From the NCBI GenBank assembly GCA_973895155.1, contig OZ316892.1, forward strand, positions 13,022,238-13,086,237: 64,000 nucleotides of DNA. The letters are read 5' to 3'. Source of the DNA: Marsupella aquatica (Eukaryota > Plantae > Marchantiophyta). Shown in pieces: positions 1-60,422 of this stretch. Below the pieces are notes generated by a model. The model ran no database searches. It was not told the origin of the DNA and saw only the letters and a program-made list of their open reading frames with translations. Every line of letters starts with the position of its first letter. Positions within the stretch are counted from its first letter, which is position 1. A program made the translations under genes and the position numbers.

Positions 1-11
1 ACTTTCTCCCC

Positions 12-3000
12 TTGACCATCGAGGAGGAGAACTATCTCTCCTGGACACTAGACGTCAAAGCTAACCTAATAGCTAAAGACATATACGAAACGATCATAAC
101 CGATCAGGGCACAACAACCCAACAGAAGGCGAGAGCCTTGGTGTTCATAAGACACCACCTCGTAGAACCACTAAAGCTACAATACCTTAACGAGGAAAAT
201 CCCCAAAACCTTTGGGATTAACTCAAGGAAAGATATGACCACATTAAGACCATACACCTGCCTAGAGCCCGCCACGACTGGGCTAACCTTCGCGTCCAAG
301 ACCATACATCTATAGTTAACTATAACAATGAGCTATTCCGCATCACATCCCAGTTGGCCCTGTGCGGCCAACCAGTCACCGACGAAGAACAAATAGAAAA
401 GACAGTATCAACCTTCCACTTAGGGAACATCATACTCTCGGCACAATATAGAAACATGAAGTTCACAAAATACTCTAAACTTATAGCTCACATGTTACTA
501 GCCGAGAGGCATCAGGAGTTACTATTGAAGAACTCCAAGATGCGACCCCCGGGAACCGTGCCAACACCCTCAACCACCAAGACAAACTTTGGAATGCCTT
601 CCAGTAGCAGAGGAGGCCAACGGGGCGGGTTCAGCCGCAACGGTAGACGACAGTTCAGAGGCGGAAGATCAACCTACCTTAGGGGGAGGGGCAAAGGCCA
701 CGGAGCTGAAGAAAGCCGCGGATGAGGAAGATCAAGCTTCAACTACACCCGTGGAGGATCGGAAAGACCAGGAAGACCAGCCCAACGGAGTAGTTCATCC
801 CAAAAATACTCAGGAAGACCCATCGTGGAGTGCTTCCAATGCGGCACCAAGGGCCACCCACAGAAATTGTGCCGCACACCGGCACATCTAGCAGAATTAT
901 ACCAGCAGAGTAGAAATAATAGAACTCAGGAGGTACATCATGGCACTTTTCTAGAGCAAGACAAACACCTAGAAAACTACACCCATGACGGGACTATCCC
1001 TGAGACACATATGATTACACATTAGCAAGATCCCTTACCTTTAGACAACATTAGATAGCGGCACGGCCCACACTACATTAAAGTGCAGGGACTATTTCAC
1101 TCACGTTACTCCCTCCCACAAAAACATGACTACTATCATGGGGAGTAACCAAATAGAAGAAGGTAACGAACCCGTCACAATCACGTTACCTCAGGGCACT
1201 ACTATCTATATTAACTCCGCTATATACGCATCTAATGCCACGAGAAACTTGATTAGTTTCAAGGACATTAGAGATAATGGATTCCATATCCACACTAGCA
1301 CAGATAAAAACCATGAAGTAATTCATATCTTAAATAATACTTCCGATGGAAAGCAAATAAAAGAAACACTTTTTGCGTATCCGTTGGGTTTCTATGTCAC
1401 ACAATTGAATGTTTTTCATTCCACTACGCATGAGATGTCACTATATGACCTTTGGCATACCAGGCTTGACCACCCTGGCATGACCATGTTTCAAAAGATG
1501 AAAAGAGTAACCCAAGGAATACCACAAAACGCACGCCCAACGAACCATAATCAGTCCTGCATGGCATGTTCTCAAGGAAAGTTAATCGTTAGACCCTCTA
1601 TCCCCAAGACAATCCACGAAATGCCCAGATTCTTGGAACGAGTGCATGCATATGTACGTGGCCCTATTGAACCACCAAGCGGACCATCTCAATTTTTCCT
1701 AGTCATTATTGCCGCATCCTCAAAATGGTCGCAAGTTTTGTTGCTTTCCACGTGAAACATGGTTTTTCCACAACTTTTAGCACACGTCCTTAAGCTAAAA
1801 GCTCAATTCCCTGAAAACCCTATCAAGACAATTAGGGTTGATAATGCAGGTGAATTCACTTCGAAAACATTCGAAGACTTCTGCATGGCTACAGGGATAG
1901 ACACTCAATACCCTGTACCTCACGTCCATTTCCAAAATGACATCGCTGAATCTGTCATTAAGAGAATACAGATGATAGCAAGACCCATGCTTATACAGAC
2001 ACAGTTACCCACAAGTGCTTGGGGTCACGCTATACTACATGCAACAGCTTTACTTAAATATCGCCCATCGGCATATAACGACCAAACTCCACACCACCTA
2101 GCCTTTGGAGTAGATCCTGACTTATCACATGTCAGAACTTTTGGCTGCCAAGTACTAGTCCCTATAATGGGACCCAAACGTACTAAAATGGGACCTCAAA
2201 GACAAAGGCATATATGTTGGTTTTGAGTCACCATCCATAATTAGGTACTTAGAACCATCAACTGTCGATGTCTTTCAAGCGAGGTTCCCTCACTACCATT
2301 TTTATGAGAATGTTTTCCCCAAACTATTCAAAGGGAAACCACAATTTGAACGACCTTGTAACCTAAAATTATGATGGCGGACTCAGTCCACTATTTGGAA
2401 CGATCCACGCACACGACAATGCGAAGAAGAAATCCGTAGGATATTACAACTAACAAAGACGGTGGAGAAAACGCCAGACACATTCACAGATATTCGCAGG
2501 TGATGAGATCACATATCCCTGTTGCAAATGCTCTTGCACGTCTACAAGAATCCACACAACTGACCACGGACTAACCACCAAGAGCAAAACATGGACGTCC
2601 TTTGGGATCTAAAGATACTCAACCAAGACAAAGAAAACAACAACAACAATATCACCTGTGATACCAGAAGTGGTATCCACACCAAGTCCTGGGGAAATCC
2701 CAGAAAATGAAAAAATCTCAATTCACTACATGAATACTGGGACCATATGGAATAGAAATAATATCCCCATGGACGACAACTTTGCTTACCACATTTCCCA
2801 AAATATCACAAATACACAACCTGACCCTAAAACAATCAATGAGGCACAGAAAAGCCTGAATTGGTCAGAATGGGAAAAGGCAATTAACTCAGAATTGGAT
2901 TTACTAATTAAACGCCAACTGTTTGGACCTATTGTCCCAGCACCACAAGATACCCACTCAGCGGATTATAAGTGACATTCGTGAAAAAGAGAAACACACA

Positions 3001-4464
3001 AGGCCAAGTTGCAAGATATAAAGCACGCATTGTCATGAAAGAATACACACAAATACCTGGGCCTGACTTTGACTTGACATATGCACCAGTGATGGATGCA
3101 ATGACCTATCGATACCTAGTTGGATTTTCCCTAGGTCATCGACTAAAAATGCATCAAATGGATGTTGTAACAACATATTTATATGGATTATTGGATACTA
3201 CGATATACATGAAAGCACCCCAGAACTAATAAAGAGACAAACATACCATATTCAGGGGGATCATAAGACAAAGCAAAACCCATCCACATCCACATCTCTA
3301 CCTTATACCACAAAAAGACCCCAGGAAGGGAAAACGGGGCAAGGTGGACCTATAGTCCATCAAACACCATGGAGTGAACCTATTGTCCTTCCTAAGAGCG
3401 GACCTATTGTTCCTCCAATACATAAATCCATGCCTCTGGCCAATGATGGATATGGTGTCCAGATCATTAGATCTTTATATGGACTCAAGCAAAGCGAAAG
3501 AATATGGTATCAGAGATTTAGAGATGAAATGCTGAATATGGGTTTTACTAATGACAATATTGCTCCTTGTTTATTCATTAAAAAACATGATGAGGAATTT
3601 TTAATAATTGCCATCTATGTAGATGATATTAAACTATTTGGACACCTAAACTTATTACAACACACCATTGAAATACTAAATCGTGTATTTGAGATGAAAG
3701 ACTTAGGCCAAACCCACTACTGTTTGGGCCTACAGTTCGAACACCTACCTGATGGTATACTTTTACACCAAAGCACTTACACTACAAAAATCCTCAAACA
3801 ATTCAACATGGACAAGGCACATCCTCTAACTTCTCCTATGGAAGTACGATCTCTAGACAGAGACAAGGATGCATTCAGGAAGAGAAACAAAAACGAACCA
3901 CTACTCGGTCCTGAAAAACCATACATATCAGCAATAGGAGCACTCATGTTTCTAGCCAACCAGACACGACCAGACATTTCCTTTGCAGTAAACCTACTAG
4001 CCAGACATGTATAGTGCACAACCCACCATACGCCACTGGAATGGCATAAAAAGAATAATGCGTTACCTTCAAGGAACTATTGATATGGGACTATATTTCC
4101 CTAATAACACTAATAAGACCTTAACAGGCTACGCGGACGCTGGATATTTATCAGACCCAGTCGACGCTAAATCACAGACTGGTTATGTATTTCTATATGG
4201 TACTACAACCATTTCTTGGAAAAACACTAAACAAACACTAACATTCACTTCATCTAACCACGCCGAGATTATTGCATTATACGAAGCCAGCAGAGAGTGT
4301 ATTTGGCTAAGAAGAGTAACCGACCATATTAATACAAATTGCGGCTTACCAGCACTAACCGAACCTACCAGCACTAACCAAACCTTTTGAGCAGGTCTCG
4401 AAAGGATTCATCAAAGGAGACCGCATCAAGCATATCGCACCAAAATTCTTCTTCACCCACGAAC
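12..4464 (+). pseudogene. copia gag-pol polyprotein pseudogene (many stops and frameshifts)
   Basis: ORF fragments 12-221, 354-725, 825-1025, 1126-1755, 1759-2226, 2658-3229, 3430-4014 and 4007-4390 are collinear pieces of one polyprotein. Confidence 0.93.
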
Positions 4465-4520
4465 GGGCCCGACCTCTGTGACAGGAAATAGGAAACAGTA
4501 ATGATCATAACAGGAAAAAG
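4465..4520 (+). repeat. Left degenerate TIR with ACAGGAAA/ACAGTAA subrepeats
   Basis: Matches the reverse complement of 16040-16098 from about position 10 (CTC..TGACAGGAAA..CATAACAG.AAAA). Confidence 0.8.
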
Positions 4521-4744
4521 AGTGGAACAAAATAGGAGAATTGGTACTATCATCCACAAAACACGGCACAATTCTCTACAAAACCAATGAGGTCAATTTC
4601 AACATGAAGTCCAATATGATGGGAAAAACAACAATTGTCGGACGACACGTTTACTAGCGCCAAGCACTACCCAAACGTTTGTTACCGTTACAAAACATCA
4701 TTGACTAAATACCCGTTCAACGTCTACTAGAATGGTCAGAATTC

Positions 4745-7700
4745 CTAAAAACCATGTGTATTCTTCATTCCTAAGATGTACTGGAGTTCACCAATAGTAA
4801 GAATTGGTTGGCTTGGTAATACCGAATCCAATGGATCCAGCTTAAAGACCATTTTGTAAACCCAGTACAAATGCTTACAAGGCATGAAAGGTCTTCCTCG
4901 AGAATGCCGGCGAAAGAAATCCTCACAAGAGCAGCATGGGAATATGAAAATCTACACCCAGTAAGTGTTTGCCATCCTCAAATGAGCGTGTGTTTGGATG
5001 CGGAATCGTTTCCCATAAGAGTTCCCTGAGGAGACGTCCAATTCTGTGATGAGAGTCATCGTTTCCTTAGCAGCAGATTCAACCCTTCTATGATATTCCT
5101 GAGTAAGATTTGATCTGGGGTTCATTGGGGGGCCGTTCCTAGTTTGAGAATGGATGTTGATTTGTGCCATATTGATCTTCTCAGGAAAAACATCAACATT
5201 GATTCTCAAATCAAAAGGAGTAGGGCTGGAGGCCATGCTTTGGTCTCGTGAGAGGATTACAACACCCTGTTCTTCAAGGAAACTTATCTCCAAGTTTGAC
5301 AGATTTGTTCCTTTCAGTATCGGCAAGGACATTGGATAAGGAGGCAGGTTTGCTATACCTCGACGTGGGTGACTCTTCCAACAATTTCCGTTGGGGCAAA
5401 ACCACACAAACTTTGCATGAGGTTCTCCTCTGAATAGGCGCTCGGGGGGGGTCACTTCCACGGAAGTGACACATCACGTGCGACGAAGTATAGGCCCATT
5501 TAAATGGGTGTGGCGGAAGACTTCCAAAGTTTGGTGGAAGAACACATAGGGCATGTTTTATTGATTGGTCGACTTTAAAGAACACATGGGCCTATTTAAT
5601 TGCAAAAAATACTTTCTATAAAGTTTTTAGGGGTTTTTTAATAGAAAATGACAAAATTTTAAGAAAGAAAGGGCTTTGCAAAAAAAAAAATTTCACTTTA
5701 AAGTTAGGGGGGTCAAACCCTAAAACGTTGCACGCGATGTATGACCCTCCATATAGTGACCCCCCCGAGAATAGGCGATGTCCTTTGACAACAACTCCGA
5801 TGACACCAGCATTGGAAGGATATCCAACCTTCTTAATCCGATTTCAACACTCATCACGATCGCATCTCCCTGACAATGTCCCGTTACACTGTGGGCCGGG
5901 CCCAAGTCTTGAAATTCGACGAAGATGCCAAGAACCGGGATCAACGTCCATCTCCAAAAGCGACATGTCAGGGACGACTGGATTTTGGTTAAAAGAGACT
6001 TATGGTAATATTGAAGATGCTCCACCTCGACCAGAAGGAGGTGCATCCTGCATGTCACCCGGGTCTTCTTCACTCCCAGTCAAATCGATCGGTGTTTCAG
6101 GAGTACTAAGTGGAATATGAGAAAACTGAGTAGAGTTCAGATTTCTGCGTTTCAAACCCCGTGTATTTGGTGTTGTTATCAAAATTGTGTCATGACGATG
6201 GGAGTCTTGGGCCGAGACATTCCCTGTCGTTGGACCTTTTCTTTTGATAGATTTGGTTACAAAATCACCGTTCAATGGAGAACTCCTCTCCAAATCGAAT
6301 TCCGCCGCATTAGCTAGTAGAAAATTAGAAGCCTCTTCGAACAATCGAGGGGACCCAGCCTGATTTGCAGAACGGAAAGCTAGTTCAAAAACCGTAGGAC
6401 TTGTACCTCTATGTAACCCATCACGGTAGGCAATATAGGCGGCAATTTGGGAGATTGCTCGATTGTGCTCAGTTTTGCACCCCTCAAATAAACCTACAGT
6501 TTTCTTCCCTTGCCAAGCTTTCATGATACCATGAATTGCCTCAGATCCTGTGCAATTGGGAATCATCCCTCCTTCTTGTGCACTTTTGCTCTGCAGGACG
6601 GCGTGGGTTGGTCAAATCTCGAATATTACTTTGGAAGACGTGATGATATTATCCATCAATACTTACAAATTAAAAGTAGCGCCGGGCGCTGTCAAAAAGG
6701 ATAAGAGAATTAAGCAAAATAGAGTCTTAATAGTAGCGCTCGGCGCTAGTTTAGAAGTATATGAGATATTGAAAAATGAAAAGGCCATGTCAATGTCATA
6801 CTCACAAGTCTGATAAAATTTCCCCACTGTCGCCATCTTACAACCCACCAAGAGATCCATCCTTGCAGCATCCAAAGCTTTCCAGGAACGCAATTTCCGG
6901 ATCTCCACCATAAATCAATCTCTCTAGAGATTCTATAGGCTTCAACAAAAGTTGATGCATTTCTGAGCTTATCCCAGAGGGTTCGATGCTCTGCACGTTT
7001 GTCTTCCAACACTCCTTCGATGGAATGGCGATGCAAAGATTGGTAAAAATGAAAAGCGTCTGATCTCTCCTTCTCTAGATTTGGATGGCCCCCAAAGAAA
7101 ATTTCTCACCGCAAGCCATCCCGCATGAGCATTGTCAACCATGAATCCGTGAATTTGAACATCATGTAACCCATTTTATGAAGCGACCTCAATCATCAAT
7201 CTCCAAGCTTTCTCAAGAGATTCAGTGTCCTCCGCTTTCAGCTCGCACGTAAATATTGTACATAACGCTTGATAGTTGTGGTCATAGACATGGGCACTGA
7301 AAGTGCTCCATTCTTTAGACATTCGATGCATGACATCAAAACTCACCCATGCTCCTTCAAGTGGCCCACCTTTTTTCATTTGTCGAAGTAGATCGACTCC
7401 AGATCCATGACCTTTGATTGTCATTTTGAAAATATGAGCACGGTCCTCCTTACAGCCTTGCCTTTGAACAAATGGAAACCTCACATTCTTCTGCATTCGA
7501 ACCAGATATTTAAGATCTCCACGACCAGCCTGATCTTTCCGGACGCTCTTAAACAAGGCAGAGAATTTCTGTGGAGTGGAAACAAGCATAAGTGACTGCC
7601 AAATCTCAGTCTCTTCCATCTTCGAAATGTCATGAACAGATTCATCTAGTGCATCCTTCAAAGTTCCAGTGACTGCATTTTTTACAACACAAGGCGCGAA

Positions 7701-8843
7701 AGAAGGATTCTTCAAGTGCTCTTTTCGAATCTCCTCGACCGCTATTTTCTCTGAACTTCTAGACCAAATCTTTTGACATGGATGATTATGTACACCCATG
7801 TGGATTGCGAGGCTTGACATATGTTGCACTGTCACCGAATCAAGCATGACTTGCGGGTACATGTAGAACATTTTTGCATGGCAAGAGTCCAGACAAAATG
7901 GGAGCTGCAGACAATAACGACAAACAATCCCTCCTACATCAATCAACTTTCCTGGACAATGTTGACCTCCTAACTTAGGGGTCCCTTCCCAAGATGAACA
8001 ATTCCTACCATTGGTTATGATATAAAACTCGCATGAATTGTTCCGACATTCTAGTGACCCGCTACAACTAACCTTCCCAAACTCCCACATCTTCTTAGGT
8101 AAGACATTGGCTGAAGTGGGGAAAATTCTAGTCCATAGATAGCAATCCTTTGACCGGTCCATGTTAAGGAGACGCTTTCCTTTTGAACCAACACAATCAA
8201 CAGGTGGAAGCTCAAATATGACATTGCCATTATAACTTCTGGAAAGCAATTCCACTTGCTCGTGCATGAAAACCTCCGATTTAACAAAGCGAGAAATCTC
8301 ACTTTGTCCAGATGATTTCAAAAGTGCATCTAACGCGCTTCGCCTATAGACGATAGTAACAGGCGGAGCTAAAAGAAGTGTATCAGATCCACTAATTGTT
8401 TTGTTCAATCCTGGAAAAACAAGAGGAACCCGTTCCTTTGATGAGCTCCCCTGATGTATTGGAACTGATTCTTCTCTCTTAATGTTTCCAACATTCATCA
8501 AAAAAGGAGATCCAAGGAATGAGTCGTCGCCTTCAGATGTGAGATTGATGACTTCCCTCGGTGCAATTACCTTCTCTAATTTAACACGAACATCATCTTT
8601 TCCTTTGAGGTATAGAGAGTAATCAACACCAATATGCAACTCCCAAAATTTCTCTCCTTGACTGTAATGGAAATGAGCTGTACAACCAGCAAATGTTCCT
8701 AAATTATCAATATCTTTCCTTCGCACATCAAATCTTGCGAAAAGATAATTCTCACTAACGCATTGAGTACCTGGTTGATTGGTCACAGGTACGGTAATCA
8801 CCTCACCTATCGCCGGACAACTTACTCTAATTACATGCTGCAT
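4745..8843 (-). pseudogene. MULE-like transposase pseudogene: GCM/WRKY-like Zn domain, DDE core, Cys-rich region, SWIM finger
   Basis: N-terminal CSGSLEC..C..CRYC..HMGVHNHP. Putative catalytic residues in FDVMHR, FMVDNA (~7140) and NCTGSEAIH, with a CxxH-equivalent SDAFH. GT-AG intron 6805-6591 joins NFIRL|SKSAQ in frame. C-terminal CSCEDF..PCKHLYWV SWIM at ~4860-4935. Stops at 7176, 6000 and 4952, frameshifts, and a MITE insertion. Confidence 0.82.
5441..5769. mobile_element. 329-bp MITE inserted in the transposase exon
   Basis: TIR CTCGGGGGGG(G)TCACT...AGTGACCCCCCCGAG and 8-bp TSD AATAGGCG (5433-5440, 5770-5777). Excision restores GVVVKGHRLF|RGEPHAKFVWFCP. Confidence 0.92.
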
Positions 8844-9881
8844 TGCGGAATATCATCGACCACAATGGTAAAATGAGAGTGTCGTGATAGTTTTAGTTTC
8901 TTATTTCACCGCTTCTAAGAAACTTCAACAAAGAAACCACCATATGACAATTTGAATTCCAATTTCATTACCGTTGATGCAACGGAAAAGTGACCAAAGA
9001 ATGGCGGCGGATGACCATTGGAAGCAAAATGTTTCCATTAGTTTAACGGCATCTTCAGCAATGGATATTAGTAGCGCCAAGCGCTAGCAAAAATTTCTTT
9101 TTTCATGCCACACAATAGGTGGAGATGAACGCAAAAATACGACAAGATGAGAGATATATTTACCCACAACATTGATAGCACTTGGCGCTATTATTAATAA
9201 TACATATTCATGTGTCCAAAAAGTGAAGAACTTTACGACCATTGTTGTATTTAGGGAATGAAATGGCATTTCAGAAATGATTTAATAATAGCATCGGGCG
9301 CTATTATGTTCTGGGCTTATTTTTATGGTAAGGGACCTTAATATCTCCCAGCGTGATTATGGAAATGTATGAAACTTAATGGTGATTTAGGTGTAATTTC
9401 TATAATAGCGTCGGGCGCTATTATACAGACTTGTCCGCTGTTGTGACCCAACGGATATTTATAACGATAACTTCATATCTTAGTGACTGTTTTATCCCTA
9501 AAGTGGCAAAGATTTAGAGACATCATTTAGATAATTTTGGTTCTGTTAATCATGACCGTTTAGAACATGTGACATGTGTCTCTTTCTTGTTGGTGTTGTC
9601 GCTCTTTTTGCTGTTTCTTTTCAGATCATGAAAAGTAAATATTTAAGTTGATCGACAATCTTTGATGGAAAGATTGTCGATCTTACATGTGAAAGGCCAA
9701 TTCAATATGTCCGATCATGTTTTGAGATTTGCTGTCCTCTCTGTCTTCCGGGAAAGAACGTGCTCCATGTTGTCTGTTTGCGACATGGAGCTCATCTATC
9801 CGGTCGCAGGATAACGTTGCAGACCTCTACGATTGGCTGAGAACATTCCCAACCTTACCGCCTTCTACTCTTTATCTAGAG

Positions 9882-12800
9882 ATGGACAATACTTCTCCCG
9901 GTAATTTTGAGACATCCGAGACTTCATTCTTTGGTTCTGTATACACTCGGGGAGTTACACGCTCAACTGCATCGCAGTCGCTTCGACATATTGGGCAGAC
10001 AGTTCCAAAGCAGAAACAAGGAGCCATGGAGAATTTCAGCAATTTTGTGATGGAGGACGGAAGCGAAGGGGCTCTGTCGATGGGTGATGTGATCGCAAAA
10101 CATGCGATGTCGTTTGAGACTGATTTCAGAGGAGAGCCTAAGGATCCCCCCCGTATACCGCTTTGTCGCTTAGTCAACATGGAAGTTGTTCAGACTCTGT
10201 AGAAGGAGAGCGCTTCGATCGAGAAGCTCAGAGATTCATTTTGGAGTTCTGGTTACAACTCCTCCATAGGGATGTGGTTCTATGTGCAACCCGCTGATTT
10301 TGAAGGGGTTATCCAATTCTGCACACTCAAAATTCGTGAGAGTTGGGATGCTATATGGGTTTCCCAGAATGAGAAATTTGAAGCGGACTGCGAAATGGAT
10401 CCCGATTTTCTTGTCTTCAAAGACAAGATGTTTTGTGTATTTGACGGGAATCATTGTCTCTATTCCTGGTTACAGATCACGGACGAAAACCCCAAAAATA
10501 TCAAGTACCATCCTCGTGTGCTTTGCACTGTATTCAAGGGAGATCGAGGCTCTCTCATCGAGATTGAGGCTGCAATGCACACAGTCAATCAGTAAGTTCC
10601 ATCATTTTCTTTCATTGAATGTCAAAAAGAATGAATATTTTTTTCAATGTTTGGCTAGCGCCTGGCGCTGATGATTTCCGTTTGGTTTCAGATTGGGACA
10701 AGCCGTGGTAGAACCGTCATGGATCTTGGATGCAGATCAAATCAATCAAATTCTGTCCCATGACCTTGATTATTATAAGGCAATCATTGACACAGGAAGC
10801 TTCAAACGATTCAAGGCGATTCAAGCGAAGACAAGGAAAGGCTCTTGGTATACCAAGAAGATGCCTTTGGAGGCTCTTGTTTACATCTTGTGTGAGAACA
10901 AGATCAAGTCATATTCTCTCCAGTTCAAAATGGACATGGCAACTGCAAACTCTCAAGGAAGGCCATGGTCAAAGGAGGAGGTCGCTAAGCGTCACGCAGC
11001 GATGATGAAGGAGGCCACAAAGGAATGGAGCGTGAAGACCTCAAAGATTACTCCTCTCCTAAGTCCTGAATTCAATAATTTTCTGTCAACTTGTGCAGAA
11101 ATGTACACTCTGACAGAAAAGAACAAGCGGGAATGGAAAGCAGAGTCCGTTGTTTGTACAATGGATCGTGCTCGACTCTTCATTGCTTTCTCCGCTTTGG
11201 ATCCGAAGTTGCGTTCTACTCTTCTTGTGGCACATTGCACACCTGAACTTCGAAAACAATTTTTCCATCCACCTAGTGTGAATGACGAACCTGTGAAGCA
11301 ATGGTGTCATACATGGCACATGTGGAGTTGGATAGAAGGAATTGCAATAGGGATGTTGCAGACTGCTCTCAGGGAGATAAGTAATCTGATCAGTTATCAG
11401 TCACTTTCATCAGTGTACCTGATATCAGCTGCCACCTCATCTTAGAGAGGCCGCCAAGTTGCGATGCGAGAGGAAAAAATGAAGAACAAAAAATCTTGAA
11501 TTTTTCTTCAAAATTTGAAGGAAAACCTCTCTTTTTTTCAAATTTTTTTTCGCCATGAGACATCCCTACCGTACGGACACCTATCTCGGCGAGCCCAGCC
11601 GAGATGGGAAAAAAAAAAATTCAAATTTTTTTGGGGGAAAATTTTTGGTTTTTTTTTTCCCACATTTTTTTGGATCCGTACGCCCCATCTCGGCGAGGCC
11701 AGCTGAGATGGGGAAAAAATCTTCAAATTTTTTTTTTTTCAGAATTTTTTTGGATTTTTTTTCGGTCCGTACGCCCATCTTGGCGAGGTCAGCCAAGATT
11801 GAATCAACCTCGGCTGCCCAACTAAGATGAGCGGAAGTTCGAAGGCCCCATCTCAACTCCTCAACTGAGATTCTAAAATTTTTGAGATAACTGATGATGT
11901 TGTGTACCCCCTCTCAGGCAAGTTGAATCAATCATGCCTCCCGAACGACTCGTGACAAGAGGAGTAGATACTTTTGATGGTTTGGTCCAGAGCATTTGTA
12001 ATGATTTCAGAATTTACGGAGATATTGTGAAGGCCAAGTTCTTCAACACAATGTGGGCTTCAAAGTATGGGGAGAAAGAAGATTTCACTACACGAAACCA
12101 GAAGCGGGCAAAGAGATATGTTTATCGGTTCTTCATGTCCATGGAGAGCGTTTTGCCTGAATACTTCTGGGCTTACCCTCCTGCATTCCAGAAGTGGTCT
12201 GTCATGGATGGGGATGCATTCAGCGAGGTTTACAGTATGTATCCGACAGATGGAACCAACCCTCCGCGTGACCTTTCTGAGTGGGAGAGAGAAAACTGTC
12301 CATGGTACCTCGATACTGATAAGTGGGATACACCTTTTGATGAATTTGAGAAAGACTCCTTTCTGAAATTGTCCAAATCTCTAGTTCCTCGCAAATTGCT
12401 GTCAGAAATGAAGGAAGGTTTAGTGGGAGATGTTGAAGCTTCAGCGGTTGAGCTTCAAAAAATTTGCGAGACAGAGGTCACACGTGTTGACCGAAGCCGA
12501 AAGCCACGCGCGAAAGTAAAAATGGATACAGGATTGAATAGCCCGTCGACACGATCTGGAAGAAAACGTAAGATGTTCAACTTATTGTTCTTCTGGTTTT
12601 TTTCATAGTTTTGGTTAGCGCCAAGCACTACTTTGAAATGTTAGATAGATACTCATAATTCTGTTCCAATTTATGTATACATTGGATGGCTAGCGCCAGG
12701 TGCTGGTATAGTTTCCTTTATTAATTTCTATTCATACTTTTTATAGGGGGAAGAAAATCAGAGGGAGAAGAAACGCAAGATGCAAAGACGACCATCACCC

Positions 12801-14188
12801 CAGAGCTCCGAAGCAAACACGGAGGCTGCTAACGCCTTGGAAGAACAAACTCCTCCAACCAATGCCAACATATCTCGTCCTGTTGATGCCACGAGCACAA
12901 GGAAAAAGAAGAAGAAGAACCACGATCTTGGTTCGATTGCGTCCACCGAGGTCCAACGAGAAGTTGGTCGATTCAATTCAAAGGTTAGCCGTCATAAGTT
13001 TGTTGAGTCCAGTGTTATGGAATTTTTTGAATCTGTGTTTACAAATGAGACCAAACCCGCATGGGTGATGACTGTTGAAAAGTGGGGGAAAGACTTAGTG
13101 GCACTTGGTCTTCGCGAGAAAGGCGTTGTAAGGGGAGGGAAGTTAAGAGCGTTTGGGGTAGATGCGGGGTTTGTGTATTTACCAACGGGGCTAAGACCTT
13201 CTTTGCTTCACCGGAAGTCGCCAAAGTGGAATGTCCCGGATCACCGAATTGTAGGTTCCTTTTTTCGGGCCATGGACCCATTTCTAGCCGATGATGGATT
13301 GTTAGCAGTTTGCACCTGGGGAGTACGACCAGATTTCCCAAGTTATTTCCGCAAGCCAAGAGTCCCAGAAGTTCCAGTGCCTGAAAACACTCAACGTTGT
13401 AATGGGCGTCCCAATGTACATGGCCAGAAGCGATTGTCAGGTAATTATCCTCATCTTTGATTATCTTTTTGGCTAGCGCTTGGCGCTAGTCATATATTCA
13501 ATTTCACGGTATTGAGTTTAGGGTTAAAGTCTTTATTTTTCGTCTGGTTTTTTGGTAGCGCCAGGCGCTACCCATGTCCCTTGTTATATATCTCATTTTT
13601 CTTGCTTACTTCACAGGTTTTCACCTTAAGACTTGACATCTTCAGTCGGGTTACATCGAAAGTCAGGGTTCCAAAGGATGTAAAGTTTAAGCCTTTGTCT
13701 GTAACTGAAGACCCTTCAATCACGAATCTCATTGGATTGCAAAGTCTCAAGAATGATCCTTCTCCTGAAGGTGCATTTGCTGGGAATGCTCGTCTGCCTG
13801 TCGGCTTCATGCAGTCTGTCCTTGAGTTAATTACGCATCCGGGAGATATTGTTATGGATTGGACGGTTGGTTCTGGGAGCACATTTGTTGCGGGTGACTT
13901 CTGTGGCCGTTTCATTCTTGGGATTGAAAATCGCAAGGAATTTGTGTCCATTGCTGAAAAGACGTTCAATGATCTTCTTCTCCCCAAAGAAGTGAGTGAG
14001 GCTGGTCCGAGCAAAGACCAGGGGAAAAAGTTAAGGACAAAGTTTGTTCTGTTGTGAATTTTGATTCCGAAGAAGAAGAAGCCGATGTTGGTGATGTGGA
14101 TGGTGGTGAAGATGTAGATAATGTAGAAGAGAAGAAGGAAGAGGGGAATGCAGAAGGAGAAACGGATGATTCAGATTCCTCAGAGTAA
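9882..14188 (+). pseudogene. Spliced accessory gene of the transposon: ParB/Srx-like N-terminal domain, N4C/N6A (beta-class-like) DNA methyltransferase-like domain, acidic tail; decayed
   Basis: Exons ~9882-10591, 10692-12567 (split by insertion 11374-11910), 12747-13440 and 13617-~14188, possibly with a further exon ~14290-14584; all introns GT-AG. Motifs: IPLCRLV..KMFCVFDGNHCLYSW (ParB-like DGxHR) and RLPVGFMQSVLELITHPGDIVMDWTVGSGSTFVAGDFCGRFILGIE (like the C-terminal SAM-binding block of N6_N4_Mtase). Stop at 10200 and frameshifts near 12747, 13320 and 14050. Confidence 0.75.
11374..11910. mobile_element. 537-bp non-autonomous element inserted in exon 2 of the accessory gene
   Basis: 8-bp TSD CTCTCAGG (11366-11373, 11911-11918) and imperfect TIRs sharing ATCAGTTATC. 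Three internal hairpin repeats CCATCTCGGCGAGGCCAGCYGAGATGG are separated by A/T tracts. Excision restores LQTALR|QVESIMPPERL in frame. Confidence 0.9.
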
Positions 14189-14595
14189 TGCCCGTAAGCT
14201 CCTTCACATTACATTACTATTTGTTTTCTTTGTTTTGTTTCAAACACATCAATTAAAGCCACGTACTTAGTGTTCTAACCAACTCGCAGGTCCGAGTGGA
14301 ATCTTCGCGAGAGGTTTCACCTACGAAGGAAATTTTCAAGGAAGGTTCTCATTACCCCGGAGAAACCATTTGTATTGCCTTCCTACGCCGAGTATGCCGC
14401 TCGCAAAGAAGAGAGCAGGAGAACCCTGACTTGGGAGCATAAAGGCTTGCAATTGAGACGAGGTTCGGATCAGAAGTTTATCCATCATCCTTTTGTCGAC
14501 GACATGGCACGGAATGAATTTGTAGACGATGAAGCAGAGTCTACAGATAGATCGGAGAGTAGTGGGTCAGAGTGTGCAGATTAGATTTGATTAGC

Positions 14596-14645
14596 TTAGA
14601 TTAGATTAGATTAGATTAGATTAGATTAGATTAGATTAGATTAGA
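14596..14645 (+). repeat. (TTAGA)10 microsatellite
   Basis: Read directly; lies just after the stop at 14584. Confidence 0.95.
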
Positions 14646-15071
14646 GTTTCACCGTTTGGTCAATTCCCCCCTCCAAAATAGTAGCGCCCGATGCTACTTA
14701 TTATTCATATGACGTGAAGCTGGATTAAGACAAGGTGGGCAATGTATGATGTTCCGTATATCCTTTTAGGAGGACAAATGTACTGAAATACTTAATTCAA
14801 CAGAAGTACCCGTACAAGTGTTTGTTTCCCTTCCGTAATGTCATTGCCTGTGGTACTCATTGATCTCAATGGACTGGTGTTTTCTCTGTATGCGTGATTG
14901 AAACGGAAACTTTTTCCCTTGCTCGAAATTGCATTGTTAGTCATTTCATTTAGACTCTCCCCTTTCGTCCCTCTCCTTTTGACAATTTGTAGGAGCTCTT
15001 GGAGGCCTTTGCCATTTACGCTTTTCGGTGTCAAGTCCTTTGAGAGACAAAAAGTCATTCGTGTAGTGACC

Positions 15072-15542
15072 ATGGACAAAGGGAAGCAGGTGAAACAAGA
15101 GAGGACTTCCCGCCTCACAAAGTTTGAGGGCAAAGCATCTGATGGTGATCTGTTTCCGAACTTCCCAATCGAAGATACTACTCACTCTGAGACATCGACT
15201 GAGCGGAATCGACTGTGGCTAGCCTCCGATGAGGGGATAAGTTTCCGATCAAAATCTATTCCTTCTACTCATTTATCGCCTCCCCGGTCTTTTCGAGAGC
15301 GTTTCTCTATTCACGATCCGGACCCTTCTGATCACTATGGGGTTGGAGGGACGCAATTTTTTAGGGACATTCAACAGTGGACTGGGCGAGTTGGATTCTC
15401 TTATTCGAACATATCAAATTGCAAGCTTAGGAGTCGCCTTCCAGGGCCGCATTTTTTTGCTGAGCGGGAGGATGGATTTCATCAAGATGACGATCGGTTC
15501 AATGCAGGACTCGATGATGAGTGTGGATCGTTGACATCCTGA
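15072..15542 (+). other. Possible third small gene of the transposon (unknown function, possibly frameshifted)
   Basis: MDKGKQVKQ... ORF with an overlapping alternative frame 15337-15534, flanked by palindromes at 14682 and 15579. No recognisable motif. Confidence 0.3.
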
Positions 15543-16039
15543 TCTTTAGGAAGTCTTTTTGCACACTCTCGTGATAGATAGTGCCCGGCGCTATCGCTAT
15601 TAAGAACAAAGGAGATAGGATTTTGTTTGTTCGGGATGTTCAGTTTGTAGGATACAGCTTTTTAGTTGTTAAGTCGATTCACTGTTCGCAACATCTCTAC
15701 ATATTCTGGAGTTTAAAGTTGTAAGAGGTATTGTCACCTTGCATAGCTTTTATTCCACAATGACACTCACTAGTCGGATTTAGGGATTTAGTGGCAAAAT
15801 GACACTCACTAGTCGGATTGTATGTCAATGACAATGAGTGTCTTGGGGATTAGTTTGTTCTTACCCGACCTCCTAGATGTTTTGGATTCTGTGACACCTT
15901 TTTTTGGAGTAGCGCCAGGCGCTACTAATACATGGAGCCATTTTTCTCAGGCTTTACTTTTGAACTTCGTTTTATAACTGTTCTCTCAAACCCTATTTTT
16001 ATTGATGGATGGCGAATGTTCAGAGTATAACCCCGTCTT

Positions 16040-16098
16040 CTTTTACTGTTATGTTTTCCTGTTTCCTGTTACTGTTTCCTGTCATGGAGAAAACCTCC
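16040..16098 (-). repeat. Right degenerate TIR
   Basis: TTTCCTGT/TTACTGT subrepeats ending ...TTCCTGTCATGGAGAAAACCTCC immediately before the TSD. Confidence 0.8.
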
Positions 16099-16248
16099 CA
16101 CGAACACCAAGGAGACACCATTCAAGTGAAGACAATTGCGAGCAAAGACAACCATGCAGATTTATTCACAAAAGCCTTGACTCTAGCACTACATACTATT
16201 CATTGTCAAGGCATAGGCTTAGGCAAACTATCAAAACTCAAAGATTAA
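16099..16248 (+). pseudogene. C-terminal end of the copia RNase H, resuming after the insertion
   Basis: Reads HEHQGDTIQVKTIASKDNHADLFTKAL...KLKD*. Removing 4465-16105 joins ...KFFFTHE|HQGDT... in frame. Confidence 0.93.
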
Positions 16249-16452
16249 AAATAATACTTAACTCTAGATAGCCATAAACTTTCATACTCTTATTTGTAAA
16301 GGTGGTTGTACTCTTTCCCTCGCATGAGTATGAGAGGGTTTTAATGAGGCAACACCTCCATAAGAACAAAGTACAAAACATAAGACTTTTGTTGGAGGAC
16401 TTAACTAACATAGAGTTGCTTGCATTACTCCCCTGATTACTCCCATAATACA

Positions 16453-16681
16453 ATCAAGGGGGAGTGTTAGAATACCATAGTTAAGTCACTAGGGTTACTT
16501 ACCTAACCCTAGTTAGGAACCTTGTAACCCTTCATACCATATATATACATCCGAGGGAGAAGTTGGATTACAGTTGGAGATTATCACACAACCTATGAGA
16601 ATAGAAATAGAATTGAGTAATAAGTGTCCATCTACTTATCCATCCAAATCCACTTCTTTGTTTAAAGGGGTTACTAAAACA
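16453..16681 (+). repeat. Polypurine tract and probable short 3' LTR of the copia element
   Basis: ATCAAGGGGGAG is directly followed by TGTTAG (LTR start 16465), with a TATATATA box at ~16540. The end ...CTAAAACA at 16681 is a candidate only, because the 5' LTR is not in the window. Confidence 0.7.
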
Positions 16682-23222: not shown

Positions 23223-25700
23223 TTATCTTCCAAGTTGCTGAGGGGGCAGACCAAACAATGCATACAAATCTTTCACCAAGATTTGAGATGCCATCCTAAC
23301 CCCCTCATAAAACTTGCAAGCAATGAATACATGATATTCATTCTCTATACTAGAGCTATCACATAGTTGACAAACCCTCTTTTTCCTGTCAATATCCTTC
23401 CATCTCCCTTGTTCTACTTCAAGGTGGTGTGAGCTTAGTCTATACTGAGCAATAAGTTGTCTAAGTTGTACTGAGATAGTGCTAGATAAGTATTCTTGTT
23501 CTCGATATTTCTTCATGGGGTTCACATCTCTCATGTAGTATTGCTGCCGTGGGCTAGGTTCATGCCAAAGTTTGTGCAAAGCCTTTTGCTCAAGTTTTGC
23601 TCTTAGCTTGGTTGGGTGTGTTGGCCATTCATGTTCAGGAAAATCCCAAGCATGGGCCCACCTGCACACATCTGCATACCACCCTTTAGCTGAAGATGAG
23701 CGCAAGGCATGAAAAGGAAATCTGTTTTCCTCCAACTCTCTTACATGCATGATGTATTTGAGTGTGTGGAAGAGTGCCTCCACCTCCAAGGAAACAAGCC
23801 TGCCTCTGCAAGTGTAAGTGCATATGGGGTTTGTGACTTGATCCCAAGCTCCATCTCAAGAAATAGCTTTTGCAGCCCCTCAATCTGTTGCCACCCAGAT
23901 TTAGACACACCTGCTCCCCAAATTGGTGCTCTATAAAGAATGACTGGTTTCACCAAAGCTCCAAAGAGATGTTTCCTTAACCTCCAAGTGTGTAGACCAG
24001 CTCTTTTGCATTTGTTCATGAATGCATAAAAAGCTCTGTACCCATTGGCAGCCCTAGATTTTACACATGAGGCCCAACTCAAGTTTTGAGAGAACTCCAC
24101 CCCAAGGTATTTGTAGGTCCTCACAAATTCCACCAGATTCCCTTGGAAGTAGAGCTCTGGATTTTGTCGTGTGCCAATGCCCAAACACTTGGTCTTCTTG
24201 AGGTTGACTACCATCCCTGTTGCTTGACAAAACTCCTCCAAGGCATTGAGATGTCTTTGCAAAGCTTCTTGAGCATGAGCAAGTAGGACCACATCATCTG
24301 CAAATATAAGAAGTTGGAGGACAAACCTACCCAATTGAGTGCCCACTCCACCATGCTCCTCCAAAATGTTGTGTAGCTGATCAATGAAGATGCCAAAGAG
24401 AGTTGGTGAGAGAGGACAACCTTGGATCATCCCAAGAGTGCTCCAGATTTCTTCAGAGGTTTCCTTTGAAAGTTTGATGCGCACTTCTTGGTACAATTTA
24501 GAAACAGCTAACCTGAGCTCTTCAGGCACTTCCAACTCCACCATCCTATCCCAAAGCTTGGATCGGGAAACTTTGTCAAAGGCCTTGGAGAAGTCCACAA
24601 ACAAGCAAAATAATGGTTTATGTGGAGATTTGGCCTTTTCACACAACACCCTCAAGTAGAGAATGTGATCCATAGTGCTTAATTCTCTCCTAAAACCTGC
24701 TTGTGAAGGTGCCCTTTTCATCTCACTCTCCAACCAAGAGCTTAATCTGGCTTCAAGTAGTCCTCCCAAAACTTTAGCAAAAGTATTGCCTACCATGATG
24801 GTTCTGTAGTTGTGCACATCGTCCTTGTTGCCTGCCTTGAAGATAGGCACCACTCTTCTAGTCATCCAAGCTTTAGGTAAACCTAAAGCCATTGCTTGAT
24901 TCAGCTCATGCACCAAGTTTGTTAGTAAAGAGGGTCCTCCCCACAAAAGAAGCTCCAAGTTCAGGCCCAACAGATCTTTAGCTTTCCCATGTTGCATGTG
25001 GGAAAGATGCACCTTCACCTCCCTCTCTATAAACTGAATGGTGTCCCCAAGGGGCAAAGGCATGCCACTAGCATCTGGAAAGAAATACAAGGATGTGACA
25101 TAGGTTACCAGGTAGAAATACAAGGATGTGACATAGGTTACCAGGTCCTGGTGATCCAAGGGGGGAGTAGTCTTGCCTGATTGCATTCTCTCCCAAAAAC
25201 GTTTTGGATGTTTGATGAACTCCTCACATAGTGATTGTTGATGACTCTTCAAGAAGCACCTCTTCTTGTGTTTGATGAAATTCTTGTACATAGTGAATGC
25301 CAAAAGTCTCTTTTCCCCTGAATGTGATCTTGCTTGCATCCTCGCTCTAGCACAATCCTCGTCAAACCAAGCCTTCATGTTTTGCTTTCTAGGGGGTTTG
25401 GTGGAGAAAATAGAGGCTGCTGCTTGTGCTATGACTTCTGAGAGCTCAATCTGATCATCCAGGGTATGGAGAAGATGTTCAAAGTTGGCTTTGAAGATGA
25501 TTTCTCTATCAGGGTCTAGAAACAGAGGTTTGAGTATTGACTTTCTATGCACTTTGTTTGGGATTGTGATCAGGTCAAGATGGAACAACAAAGGCAAATG
25601 TGAAGACTCTGGTTGTTGATCAAGTATTTGAAAATCAACCACTCTAGTGACAGAGGTAGGTGACCAATGCCTTCGCCTTACCACACATGTGCTGACGAAC
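23223..25700 (-). mobile_element. Non-LTR retrotransposon (LINE) ORF2: RT plus C-terminal Cys/His domain; 5'-truncated or degenerate, one frameshift
   Basis: ORF 23741-25684 has PIFKAG..NYRTI, QAGFR, FVDFSKAFD, QGCPLSPTLF, FADD and YKYLG. ORF 23223-23789 has RLSSHHLEVEQGRW..CQLC..ENEYHVFIAC. A 33-bp tandem duplication sits at 25081-25146. Confidence 0.93.
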
Positions 25701-27354
25701 CCTTGTGTGCCAGAAGTGGAAGAGTGGCAAATGTGGCAAAGGTGAGAATAGTAGGTGGAATTTTGGATACAAAAATACTCTGGTGCAAACGGCTTCCCTT
25801 TACAGTGGCAGAAGGTGCTGCATGATCGTTTGCGTTGTTAACATAAGTACAAGGCATCAAGACCTCCTTAAAAACAGTAACCGAGAGAGCAATTTCTGTC
25901 AACTCATTAAATGGACATCATGTATGTTTACATCAAAGTGAAGAGAGAATGTTGTCCAGTGCAAAACTGTGTTGGGAGTTTTCAGGACCAAAGAAAAAAC
26001 AGCAGACCTGTTTGCTCAAGTTATTACAGGTAGGTAGCAATGTATGCCATCTAAGAGGTATAACATCATCACACTTTCTTTTTGTTCGAAGTGTTTAAGG
26101 TGTTCCAATTCTAATTCAAGAATTGTAAGGTAGTCTCCCTAGTGTTACTATTGCGATATTTGCTGACCTGGGTAAGAATGGAAGCACCCTCTGAAATACA
26201 CCACGATCATTCGATATAGGAATCTAAATTTTTTAACCAAACCATTTCATGCAGGTATGTTCTAGCAAACTGGGCCTGTCGAGATTTGAGACCTATCGTC
26301 CAGCCCACTCAAGTGTCCGCTAGAGGATTTCGGTGCTTTAGTCATGGCTCTTTGCAGGACAGTATGGTGGCATAGGATTACTCAAGTCGTCTACCCAGTA
26401 GTCCGCAAGAACTTGGAGCATCGGTCCGGCCTAAATAAACCAATATGGAATGTTCGACAAAACTCAGATGGACTCGGCGATGAGCGCTGACGACTAATTA
26501 TATACGTAACGATATCTTTATTATCTTCTTGCACGAATGATAGTGCGAACAGTTGATCCGAAAGAGGGAGGGGGCATCTGAGCCTCGATTACTGCTTCCC
26601 ACAAAAAACTTCATGAACCAGTGGTACTTGGGAACATTAGTTGGGAACACACCACTAAATGGCCATATCATTCAACACAGCAATGATGGTCCCCAATATC
26701 CAACATGCAAATACTAAGACGACGAATTCACAGAAATAAACTCTTTGTTCAAGTGTGGAACTTTATATACATTCACTTGGTTTACAGTACACCACATCGG
26801 AACAATCCAATGGTAAGGAGTCATGAATTTTGTCCTCTACCACTAGAGCCTTAGAATGAAGTGAAAATGATAAAAGCTACAAAGTGGAATAATTTATTTT
26901 GCGCCAGGAGAAATCCATCCACTTGCATGATGGGAGCGCCCCCATCCAAGGCTACCAACAAGATAAGCATCCAGAAGATTCCATGCCCAGCCAAAATACT
27001 GATTCCAACTTTAAAGCCTAACAGTAAAGCAGCAGACCAAGCCAAAAATATTGATTCCAACTTAGAAGCCCTACCAGTCCTGAATCTGGACTTCAAATGG
27101 TTTCATGGCGAGCCCAACTCTAGTCAAAACCCAGAGTTCCCAGCCCCATCCGCCCCAACTAGAGGAGAGAGTGTCTAAAGGTTACGGAAAGAGAGCTTAC
27201 TGAAAGATTCAAGTATCCGACAGAACACACTTAGCTCTTCTAGTGAACCCCCACCACCAAAGCCCTATTCTTTCCCAAAATTTACAAAAGTAAATGTGCC
27301 TCCATCAAACTCGTGCGTTCCTTCATGGTACTAAAGGGAAAAAAACCTCCCCGA

Positions 27355-33300: not shown

Positions 33301-34181
33301 ACGCCATGCAATCTGACTGGGACTTCCAAGCAAATTTCACACAGGCCGAATTTCGAAGGACAACGTTATCTTGGAAGCATCAAAATTTCAAGGAAGCTTA
33401 CATCGTACTGGTGAAGATCCTTATCAGGTAGTTCAGCGAAAAAGTGATTCGCCTTCACTATACACTTGGTGCCAGTCTGACCCTTGCCCGGACGAAGAGG
33501 AAACCTCAGAGCTCGGCTAGAGACCGGAGGGGTCTGTCTAACGGGAGACGATGGGCCCGGTTCTTCGACATGCAAGTCTTCCAGCGCCGTCGATATACTT
33601 AATTCTCCAACCTGAAGCGCTGCTATCGAAGATCCGCCAGCAGGAGAGAATCCAACATTGGCGGGTTGTGCACTAGCTGAAACTGGCTGTCTCGGAGAAA
33701 CATACGATGCTGCTTGCTGAGGTCCTCGTGATAAACTAGTATACACTTCACCAGAGCCGGACGGGGGATATGGCTGTGGTTGTCCAGTGGAAGAAAATCC
33801 AGACTGTGCAGGATGAACATGGGGACCTCTAGAACTTGAGCCATACGACCCTCCACCACCTCCCTGATAACCACCGCGACCTCCCTCCCGGCCCCTACCT
33901 CGACCGCCACCACCCTGCCGTCCCCTACCCCTGCCCTGTCCCCCACTTGGGACACCTTGCTGCGGTCCAGGCCCGAAACCTTGCTGAGTTCCGGGACCAG
34001 GATGAGGTCCACCTGGTGGACCTCGTCCTACACCACCAGCTTCATCTCTAACCTGTTGAACTGGTTCCTGAGTTGCGGATCGAGGAATAGGTGGTGCAGA
34101 CGAATCAGACGCAGACGCAGACGCAGACGCCTGTAAGGCAGCCTCCTCTATTTCCTTCGGAGTCCTCCGCTTCCGCGGCAT
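27355..34181 (-). CDS. AGO1: Argonaute 1-type protein, ~22 exons, apparently intact slicer
   Basis: Gly-rich first exon 34181-33402 ([23 protein letters not shown]), then N/PAZ/MID/PIWI exons with GT-AG introns ([66 protein letters not shown]). Last exon [22 protein letters not shown]. Catalytic D/D/H residues are present. Internal exon edges are approximate. Confidence 0.97.
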
Positions 34182-59400: not shown

Positions 59401-60422
59401 GGTCAACATGACCAGAGGAGAACATAATACCGTATTTAGGAGGTCTCCTCCCAAGCCCGCATCTTCCAAAGCTTTCTGTCCGCTGACCAGACAATACCTA
59501 AGGCAGTCGTCAAGGCGACGATCGTTTTTCCCATCAATGTAACCCTTCGACTCGAATCCCCGAATTTGACCCCCAAATTTAGTCGGGAATGTCGATGCAT
59601 CAAAACGATCAATCAGAGAGATCCCGCTCGTTCCTTCGAGGAGTTTTTCGTAAAATGTGTCAACGTCGTTCCCGAACACGGAAACGACGCCCATTCCTGT
59701 AACCACCACTCTTTTCTTGGGGTCCATCTCTCTCTTTGGGGCACTGACTGCTGAGGCCATCGCTCTTGCCCCGGCTTTCCTCGTACCTGTCAATATCAGC
59801 ATTTCAGTAACTTGTTCACTCGGATAGAGTCCCACCTCACCCACAAGAAGATGTTAACGATTCTTGAGACCTCGTCCCTAGTACTATTTCTTCGAGTTGC
59901 ACGAACTCATAGAGTTCCATGGTACAAGACTAGCTTAAGAGCAAAAGAGTAGCCGTTAAGCAATTCACGACGCCCACCAAGAAGCCACATCCAAACTATC
60001 GCGTCAATCAAGATGACCGAACAGGGTATAACGCAGATTGACCCTAAAAATACGTAAACCCATCATATCCACCCTTCCAGATACATCATCGCAATTCGTG
60101 ACTTACAGATAAACATATAAAGCCAATATGCCATGCAATAAGTTGCCAATATATGGTAAACACTCAAGAACGGAAAGACGGCAACTGATTAACTGACGAC
60201 GGCCAAACTAGGGCTTTGCAAGCTTTTTAAATTTGCAGGAAATACAAGGGGACGGCTCTGCATTGCAAGGGACACGAGGGTGGGAGAAAACGTACGAAGT
60301 CGGAGTTGAGAAGCTGAGGAAGAGACATTTGGAGATCGCAGAAGAGCAACGTCGGAAGCTGGTGAATCTACTTTTCTGAGCCCTTGAAACCCGGCTCCGA
60401 CCACGGCGCTTACGGCTTCCAT
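56496..60422 (-). CDS. KASI: 3-oxoacyl-[ACP] synthase I (KAS I), plastid, 8 exons
   Basis: Exons ~60422-60198, 59787-59432, 58652-58222, 58089-57916, 57612-57499, 57115-57014, 56897-56831 and 56563-56496. Motifs: DPKKRVVVTGMG, STACATSN (catalytic Cys), NAHATST and IGHCLG (catalytic His), final GISNSFGFGGHNSCIVFAPYSS*. Confidence 0.96.

Follow-up and report, generated by a model that had tools for sequence, protein, structure and literature searches.

Beta-class N6A/N4C methyltransferases (MTases; PF01555), represented by CcrM (6pbd), M1.HpyAVI (5hek/5hfj), M.MboIIA (1g60), M.RsrI and M.PvuII, are DNA-binding dimers (PMC10406627). In N4CMT and CcrM, the first residue of motif IV and its Pro hold the target amino group, and the aromatic residue stacks the base; His253 of N4CMT contacts the cofactor (PMC10406627).

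Among eukaryotes, N4CMT of bdelloid rotifers has been described as a 4mC writer (PMC8885841), and in the liverwort protein MpDN4MT1, which carries no extra domains (PMC8885841), motif IV reads TSPPY (10.1101/2021.02.12.428880); both proteins are mentioned in PMC12344493. For plants, 4mC has been described from a single liverwort host enzyme. DAM domains are carried by DIRS and LTR retrotransposons (10.64898/2026.05.21.726589; PMC4738411), those of DIRS elements having been judged inactive (PMC4738411), and DNMTs of retrotransposons have also been reported (PMC5890265).

Mutator-like elements (MULEs) have target-site duplications of 8–11 bp, and MULEs with accessory genes are known (PMC6446971). 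In the VANDAL21 element, the protein VANC21 binds a short motif found in introns, intergenic and terminal DNA, and removes methylation (PMC5735166). Neither 'methyltransferase' nor 'ParB' occurs in the available text of PMC6446971, and Mutator/MULE does not occur in that of 10.64898/2026.05.21.726589 on DAM elements. In the literature covered, to which the phylogeny and supplements of the Marchantia Cell paper did not belong, neither a Mutator element with a PF01555 domain nor the liverwort family described below was found. A transposon with a captured prokaryotic methylase domain is already known; what is new here is the class of element, the class of fold and the host group.

The window analysed here, a stretch of 64,000 nucleotides from the liverwort Marsupella aquatica, contains a complete MULE with the following limits:

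4465..16096, no strand: complete Mutator-like (MULE) DNA transposon with two divergent genes, 11,632 bp, with a 9-bp duplication
4456..4464, plus strand: left target-site duplication CCCACGAAC, 9 bp
16097..16105, plus strand: right target-site duplication CCCACGAAC, 9 bp
4474..4525, plus strand: left putative terminal inverted repeat, degenerate, about 50 bp, from local alignment of the ends
16031..16089, minus strand: right putative terminal inverted repeat, degenerate, from local alignment of the ends
4770..8843, minus strand: probable Mutator-type transposase gene, broken, assigned by motifs and Atlas neighbours, with approximate 3' exon limits

The 9-bp duplication fits the MULE criterion of 8–11 bp. 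Local alignment of the two 300-bp ends yielded an inverted-repeat score of 83, compared with a mean of 41.6 and a maximum of 76 in 200 shuffles. The element makes up 18% of the window, with a coding share of 62% in the gene model, and was inserted into the RNase H region of a Copia element. Remnants of this split host element (gag, integrase, RT and RNase H) were observed at 1–4464 and 16097–16600. At the right end of the MULE, an ORF of about 155 aa (15072–15539, plus strand), for which no Pfam match was obtained, is possibly a third gene or exon.

The minus-strand gene encodes a Cys/His-rich N-terminal finger, the motifs FDVMHR, MVDNAHAG, DAFH and GSEAIH, and a C-terminal SWIM-like finger, a set of motifs that we take to be of Mutator type. 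Its nearest Atlas neighbours were unnamed eukaryotic clusters (0.96 and 0.94), followed by ZSWIM RNaseH-like (0.91) and MULE entries (0.88 and 0.86), while the Pfam profile search of the transposase yielded no MULE match, and SWIM at E = 0.28. An intron was placed at about 6591–6805, and the gene is interrupted by a stop at 7176 and by frameshifts.

The second gene, on the plus strand, comprises about six exons and would encode about 1,150–1,200 aa:

9873..10591, plus strand: exon 1, N-terminal domain with DGNH(C), start codon uncertain
10692..11380, plus strand: exon 2, 3' limit approximate, no family match
11919..12567, plus strand: exon 3, its 3' part corresponding to residues 1–109 of Calypogeia protein P0160 (tblastn E = 1.6e-11)
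12747..13440, plus strand: exon 4, encoding a linker and then the first half of the MTase-like domain (region of motifs IV–VIII)
13617..14190, plus strand: exon 5, encoding the second half of that domain (motifs X, I and II) and an acidic tail
14291..14584, plus strand: last exon, corresponding to residues 520–617 of P0160 (tblastn E = 1.1e-16)

What the first-pass annotation numbered as exons 3 and 4 corresponds to exons 4 and 5 in this model of about six exons. Intron 13441–13616 (GT..AG) precedes the exon starting at 13617. P0160 aligned collinearly to four window segments, from 12273 to 14581, and the MTase domain is therefore one part of a long conserved gene. Within intron 2, a T/A-rich segment (11480–11880) contains three to four imperfect hairpin-like repeats of the CCCATCTCGGCG...GCTGAGATGGG type without the palindromes of the element; this segment is possibly a small nested insertion. 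A (GATTA)n microsatellite (14580–14646) lies immediately 3' of the stop of the second gene.

Related copies were compared in contigs from four sequencing runs of two organisms, which contained 49–69% of the sampled window words. In diverged copies, matching ended at exon edges near 12737, 13444 and 13614, the exons being kept and the introns lost. The frameshift suspected earlier near 13320 was confirmed and placed at about 13308–13315 in exon 4 by extra bases in related copies in all four runs. A second frameshift near 14024, upstream of the acidic tail, is probable, with extra bases found there in three of the four runs at a low share. In exon 1, the present copy carries a stop at 10200–10202. 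The MULE copy is thus broken, and since stops and frameshifts hit both genes it can be regarded as dead.

The earlier claim of a bacterial-type amino-MTase domain in a plant transposon was borne out by a PF01555 match, by fold comparison and by the bounded element at 4465–16096. The peptides on which it rested were found where they had been reported: DAGFVYLPTG at 13161–13190, PKWN, PFLADDGLLAV, and RLPVGFMQ...IGIENRKEFVSIA in the exon from 13617. A profile search with the exon at 13617–14054 gave PF01555 at E = 1.1e-9 (39 bits; cut-off 26.7), in agreement with the proposed beta-class C-terminal block, and the match spanned profile positions 163–221 of 221. When the same exon was searched against PDB sequences, 12 of the 13 matches at E ≤ 1 were beta-class amino-MTases, led by M1.HpyAVI, CcrM and MboIIA; N4CMT appeared at E = 0.73.

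Exon 4 alone yielded no match in the Pfam search. It aligned, however, to a Calypogeia relative (32% over 114 residues) and also to a Riccia relative, in which PF01555 profile positions 2–212 of 221 are covered. The longer relatives scored 18.9–24.7 bits on PF01555, under the cut-off of 26.7. The order of motifs predicted by the first reading, with motif IV upstream as in the beta class, was confirmed on the relatives P0043 (Riccia) and P0003 (Calypogeia), which are 32–45% identical to the window exons.

For fold comparison, a structure model was made of P0003 from a six-row alignment (pLDDT 55, pTM 0.57). The model matched CcrM at E = 1.3e-9, and structural alignment yielded Z scores of 15.8, 15.6, 15.2, 14.4 and 13.5 for M1.HpyAVI, MboIIA, CcrM, N4CMT (8s9m) and PvuII, respectively. 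On these structural scores of P0003, the beta-class fold is present in its entirety. Membership in MT-A70 or another RNA or protein MTase family was rejected: the MT-A70 proteins reached Z values of at most 11.5, and 19 bacterial-type DNA amino-MTase entries (beta-class, type III Mod and N4CMT) stood above the first of them.

The domain therefore shares with PF01555 enzymes the whole-domain fold (Z 13–16), motif IV placed before motifs X, I and II, and the SAM-loop residues. Its structural identity to them is 13–19%, and it differs from them by the absence of (D/S/N)PP(Y/F/W) and by Gly in place of His; moreover, its gene, which is spliced and encodes further domains, sits on a plant transposon. 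The residues in question lie as follows:

13176..13187, plus strand: motif IV equivalent YLPT (canonical (D/S/N)PP(Y/F/W)), aligned to DPPT of Riccia and prokaryotic DPPY
13782..13799, plus strand: motif X equivalent GNARLP (canonical HPTQKP or HPAxFP), with His replaced by Gly and Lys by Leu
13857..13877, plus strand: motif I equivalent DWTVGSG (SAM loop)
13926..13928, plus strand: motif II Glu, E in 43 of 48 family rows

The location of motif IV proposed earlier was upheld, as the Tyr of DAGFVYLPTG falls in the column of the catalytic Asp in alignments to the Riccia DPPT and prokaryotic DPPY; the Riccia PF01555 match, which begins at profile position 2, supports this placement. The motif IV consensus was examined in the nine sequences that cover it, six of them from one species. 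The full (D/S/N)PP(Y/F/W) motif was present in none, D being absent in eight and the Riccia protein reading DPPT. Position 1 was F in four rows, C in two, and Y, A and D in one each; position 4 was N in five, T in three and S in one, and thus aromatic in none. In contrast, the second Pro was invariant (9/9), as was the downstream W-N pair (10/10).

The suggestion that TAT in the present copy is a one-base decay of GAT, which would restore DLPTG, was not supported. Relatives carry F (4), C (2) or A (1), with D in Riccia only, as judged on the proteins and not on the nearest DNA copies. Since position 1 is F, C or A in relatives and the fourth residue is never aromatic, a one-base route to Asp is not the family state; the unusual motif is a trait of the family.

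Motifs X, I and II were counted in 57 family rows, from which the prokaryotic P0061 and P0132 had been dropped and some of which are near-copies. The His column of motif X was G in 43 of 47 family rows, compared with H in 23 of 25 prokaryotic rows. In the Lys column, L, V, M or I was found in 46 of 49 family rows and R in Riccia, while 24 of the 25 prokaryotic rows had K or F; a hydrophobic residue there is also normal for S-type enzymes (F in 6/25). Because the 25 prokaryotic rows had been selected for having motif IV, their motif IV counts are not a test. The SAM loop was largely kept (D 51/54, G 45/52 and 47/52), with W in place of the usual P/F pair, and its S/T was likewise conserved among about 50 family rows.

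The amino-group-holding Asp/Ser/Asn and the base-stacking aromatic are both absent, so family members probably transfer no methyl group, judging by their residues. Of the two earlier alternatives, a divergent enzyme or a SAM-binding pseudo-enzyme, the pseudo-enzyme is supported. Its SAM binding finds support in part only, given that another residue stands at the position of the cofactor-contacting His of N4CMT. The most enzyme-like member is P0043 of Riccia sorocarpa (KAL3696265.1), which combines DPPT, Arg in the Lys column and the full PF01555 span; it is the best candidate for residual activity.

Selection was evaluated on 40 listed differences out of 386 between copies, 30 of the 40 being coding. 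In the MTase core, 12 of the 15 listed differences were synonymous, compared with 23% expected (p = 5.5e-6), while in the upstream linker this applied to 1 of 11. The proportion in the core indicates that the MTase fold is under selection, and the domain thus appears, from these substitutions, to be kept among element copies despite its non-canonical active site.

A search of 1.84 billion cluster representatives yielded 273 matches at E ≤ 0.001 and 30 at E ≤ 1e-10, of which 28 were family clusters (50% identity) and two were prokaryotic multi-MTase proteins. Seven relatives carried species names, six being from Calypogeia fissa, where the paralogues are spread over at least five contigs, and one from Riccia sorocarpa. 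A word-seeded homologue search for the MTase exon among longer proteins retained none of 343 candidates. Locus scans for relatives in metagenomes and prokaryotic genomes, and for the N-terminal domain in viral contigs, found none, and the scan of viral contigs with the MTase returned generic phage MTases only (26–41%). Linkage to a transposase is seen in the present copy alone, the only one viewed in its genomic context. Among prokaryotic proteins, P0023, P0030, P0035 and P0048–P0052 each carry beta-class MTase domains in tandem, two or three per protein.

In a 32-row tree with long branches and a midpoint root, the seven family rows grouped together (100/99), and within this group Riccia was placed as sister to the remaining six (96/88). 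MpDN4MT1, N4CMT, P0046, four loci without a clean motif cut and half-domain rows were left out of this tree. Nine IMG/VR ParB-linked proteins were included for comparison with phage ParB-MTases, and the family did not join them; descent from phage ParB-MTase fusions was not supported in this tree of long branches and midpoint root. On balance, we favour descent from a D-type enzyme of prokaryotes by way of an intermediate with DPPT and Arg, as in the Riccia protein, followed by joint loss of Asp and Lys.

A relation to liverwort 4mC writers, raised in the first-pass annotation, found no support: MpDN4MT1 has TSPPY, the most enzyme-like member of the present family is D-type, and N4CMT stands below M1.HpyAVI, MboIIA and CcrM by fold. 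Like MpDN4MT1a/b and N4CMT, the family is a eukaryotic case of a beta-class fold that stems from prokaryotes. Compared by motif and fold, those proteins differ in having SPPY and in being active host genes, whereas the family is D-type at its base, has no canonical motif IV and is transposon-borne here; the second gene is also multi-domain, unlike MpDN4MT1. The retrotransposon-borne methylases likewise combine a prokaryotic-type methylase domain with a transposon, but they are of Dam type or C5, lie in retroelement polyproteins and mostly carry NPP. The domain described here is of beta class and lies in a separate spliced gene of a DNA transposon, and its host is a land plant, a group reported to lack DAM-LTRs. 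The existence of a diverse beta-class family carried by a Mutator element suggests that land plants acquired such a domain on a further occasion, probably independently of DN4MT1, and a PF01555 annotation in a liverwort genome need not denote a 4mC writer.

Throughout the non-coding part of the element, a palindrome recurs:

4655..15924, no strand: 15 dispersed palindromes TAGCGC-N3-GCGCTA in introns, intergenic and subterminal DNA of the element, at 4655, 6677, 6734, 9072, 9176, 9289, 9406, 10656, 12616, 12691, 13474, 13556, 14682, 15579 and 15910

Allowing up to two mismatches, 15 were found compared with 0.72 expected, a number reached in none of 100 shuffles. All 15 lie inside the MULE and none elsewhere in the window; all are non-coding, for which the probability is about 5e-7 given the coding share of 62%. 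The outermost palindromes are near-symmetric, about 190 bp inside one end of the element and about 172 bp inside the other, while 13 of the 15 are far from the ends and five lie in introns of the second gene. Seven of their 30 CpGs read TG or CA, so the present copy was likely methylated.

The observed/expected ratio of CpG was 0.75 in the element, compared with 0.34 in neighbouring repeat DNA and 0.65–0.84 in host genes; the Copia flanks yielded 0.61 on the left and 0.15 on the short right side. The high value of the element fits escape from silencing, but its youth may explain it too. A LINE-type reverse transcriptase remnant at 23223–25837 (minus strand), the family name of which we assume from its motifs, had a ratio of 0.12.

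In the N-terminal domain of the second protein, the motif DGNHR, which we take to be a ParB/Srx signature, was kept in both Logan relatives (76% and 52%) and reads DGNH(C) in the window. Tests for ParB/Srx yielded no Pfam match, and hhalign to phage ParB gave a probability of 0.47%, below 6 of 60 shuffles. The structure prediction reached pLDDT 32, the PDB profile search returned galectin noise alone (E ≥ 1.3), and the best PHROGs match was at E = 0.057. Because profile, hhalign and fold tests gave no support, ParB membership is not claimed, and the motif-level resemblance is treated as a lead only. The nine phage ParB-MTase fusions are similar in placing an N-terminal domain with a GxxR-type motif before a beta-class MTase; they differ in that no N-terminal profile match was obtained here, in their separate position in the tree, and in the approximately 850 aa between the two domains here. 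The Atlas neighbour of the N-terminal domain was DUF3723 (0.95; 179/256 features; 47% of members), with recognition under the threshold of the tool. DUF3723 is described as conserved cargo of fungal Starship elements, and kinship with it is likewise only a lead.

When the whole element is compared with VANDAL/VANC, the likeness is that both are large MULEs whose ends are short and degenerate, that both carry an accessory gene, and that each has a motif of its own, concentrated in introns and in intergenic and terminal DNA (PMC5735166, PMC6446971). In contrast, the accessory protein here has an MTase fold, and its palindromes are dispersed 15-mers, whereas the VANC motifs are tandem, asymmetric 8–9-mers; no VANC-type match was obtained in the Pfam search of the window. 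By analogy with VANC, an anti-silencing role is conceivable, with the palindromes as candidate sites.

Our tentative reading is that the protein encoded by the second gene acts in trans on its own element, a dead MTase fold binding the two-fold palindromes. Given that the relatives examined carry other residues at the catalytic positions, the beta-class domain has likely ceased to methylate DNA; it would instead regulate its own MULE by binding DNA. The protein of about 1,150–1,200 aa might bind the palindromes as a dimer and, so bound, might keep the element expressed or unmethylated or help its transposition, as VANC does for VANDAL. Since a 15-bp palindrome is available as a candidate target, together with a natural series from DPPT to FLPN, both the shift from enzyme to pseudo-enzyme and the anti-silencing route are directly testable.

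The same loss of catalytic residues would suit a MURB-like transposition helper in which the dead fold provides a scaffold, mediates dimerisation or senses the cofactor, the palindromes being bound by the transposase. Their near-symmetric position inside both ends is suitable for transposase sites, the transposase carries its own Cys/His finger, the AtMu1 transposase alone can activate cognate copies, and mudrB is required for integration (PMC6446971). With 13 of 15 palindromes far from the ends, five of them in introns of the second gene, and with beta-class enzymes acting as DNA-binding dimers (PMC10406627), this explanation is rather unlikely.

Going beyond our tentative reading of a DNA-binding regulator, a liverwort Mutator lineage might have turned a prokaryotic amino-MTase into a sequence-specific anti-silencing factor. 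Such a protein would either flip or read methylated bases at its own GCGC palindromes through a rebuilt pocket (aromatic for Asp, invariant Trp), or write an amino-methyl mark through a non-canonical site. We consider this speculative and unlikely; if true, it would, given a ParB-like N-terminal domain, amount to a parS-like self-recognition system in a plant transposon.

An active amino-MTase with a rebuilt active site, writing 4mC or 6mA (or methylating RNA) on its own element, for example at GCGC half-sites, and blocking or mimicking host marks, appears quite improbable. The full motif IV is found in none of nine members, its first position shifts among F, C, Y and A, unlike a catalytic residue, and Gly stands in place of the His that contacts the cofactor in 43 of 47 rows. 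These substitutions have to be set against the conserved SAM-loop D, G, G and S/T and motif II E over about 50 rows, purifying selection in the core, the invariant second Pro (9/9) and W-N (10/10) of motif IV, and the DPP with a basic residue retained in Riccia; bacterial-origin 4mC writers are, moreover, active in a liverwort and in rotifers (10.1101/2021.02.12.428880, PMC8885841). MULEs are known to capture host genes (PMC6446971), but that the gene was picked up passively, in the manner of a Pack-MULE, and does nothing for the element is very improbable given that core differences between copies are mostly synonymous, that in diverged copies the exons persist and the introns are gone, that 28 family clusters (50% identity) were found at E ≤ 1e-10 with six dispersed paralogues in one species, and that the introns contain the element's own palindromes.

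Outside the MULE and its Copia host, the window contains genes that we presume to encode an Argonaute 1-like protein (30000–34200, minus strand), an intronless uroporphyrinogen decarboxylase (51812–53104, plus strand) and a KASII-like ketoacyl synthase (58200–59850, minus strand). A tandem repeat with a period of 78 bp was observed at 61756–62240, with two minus-strand frames open.
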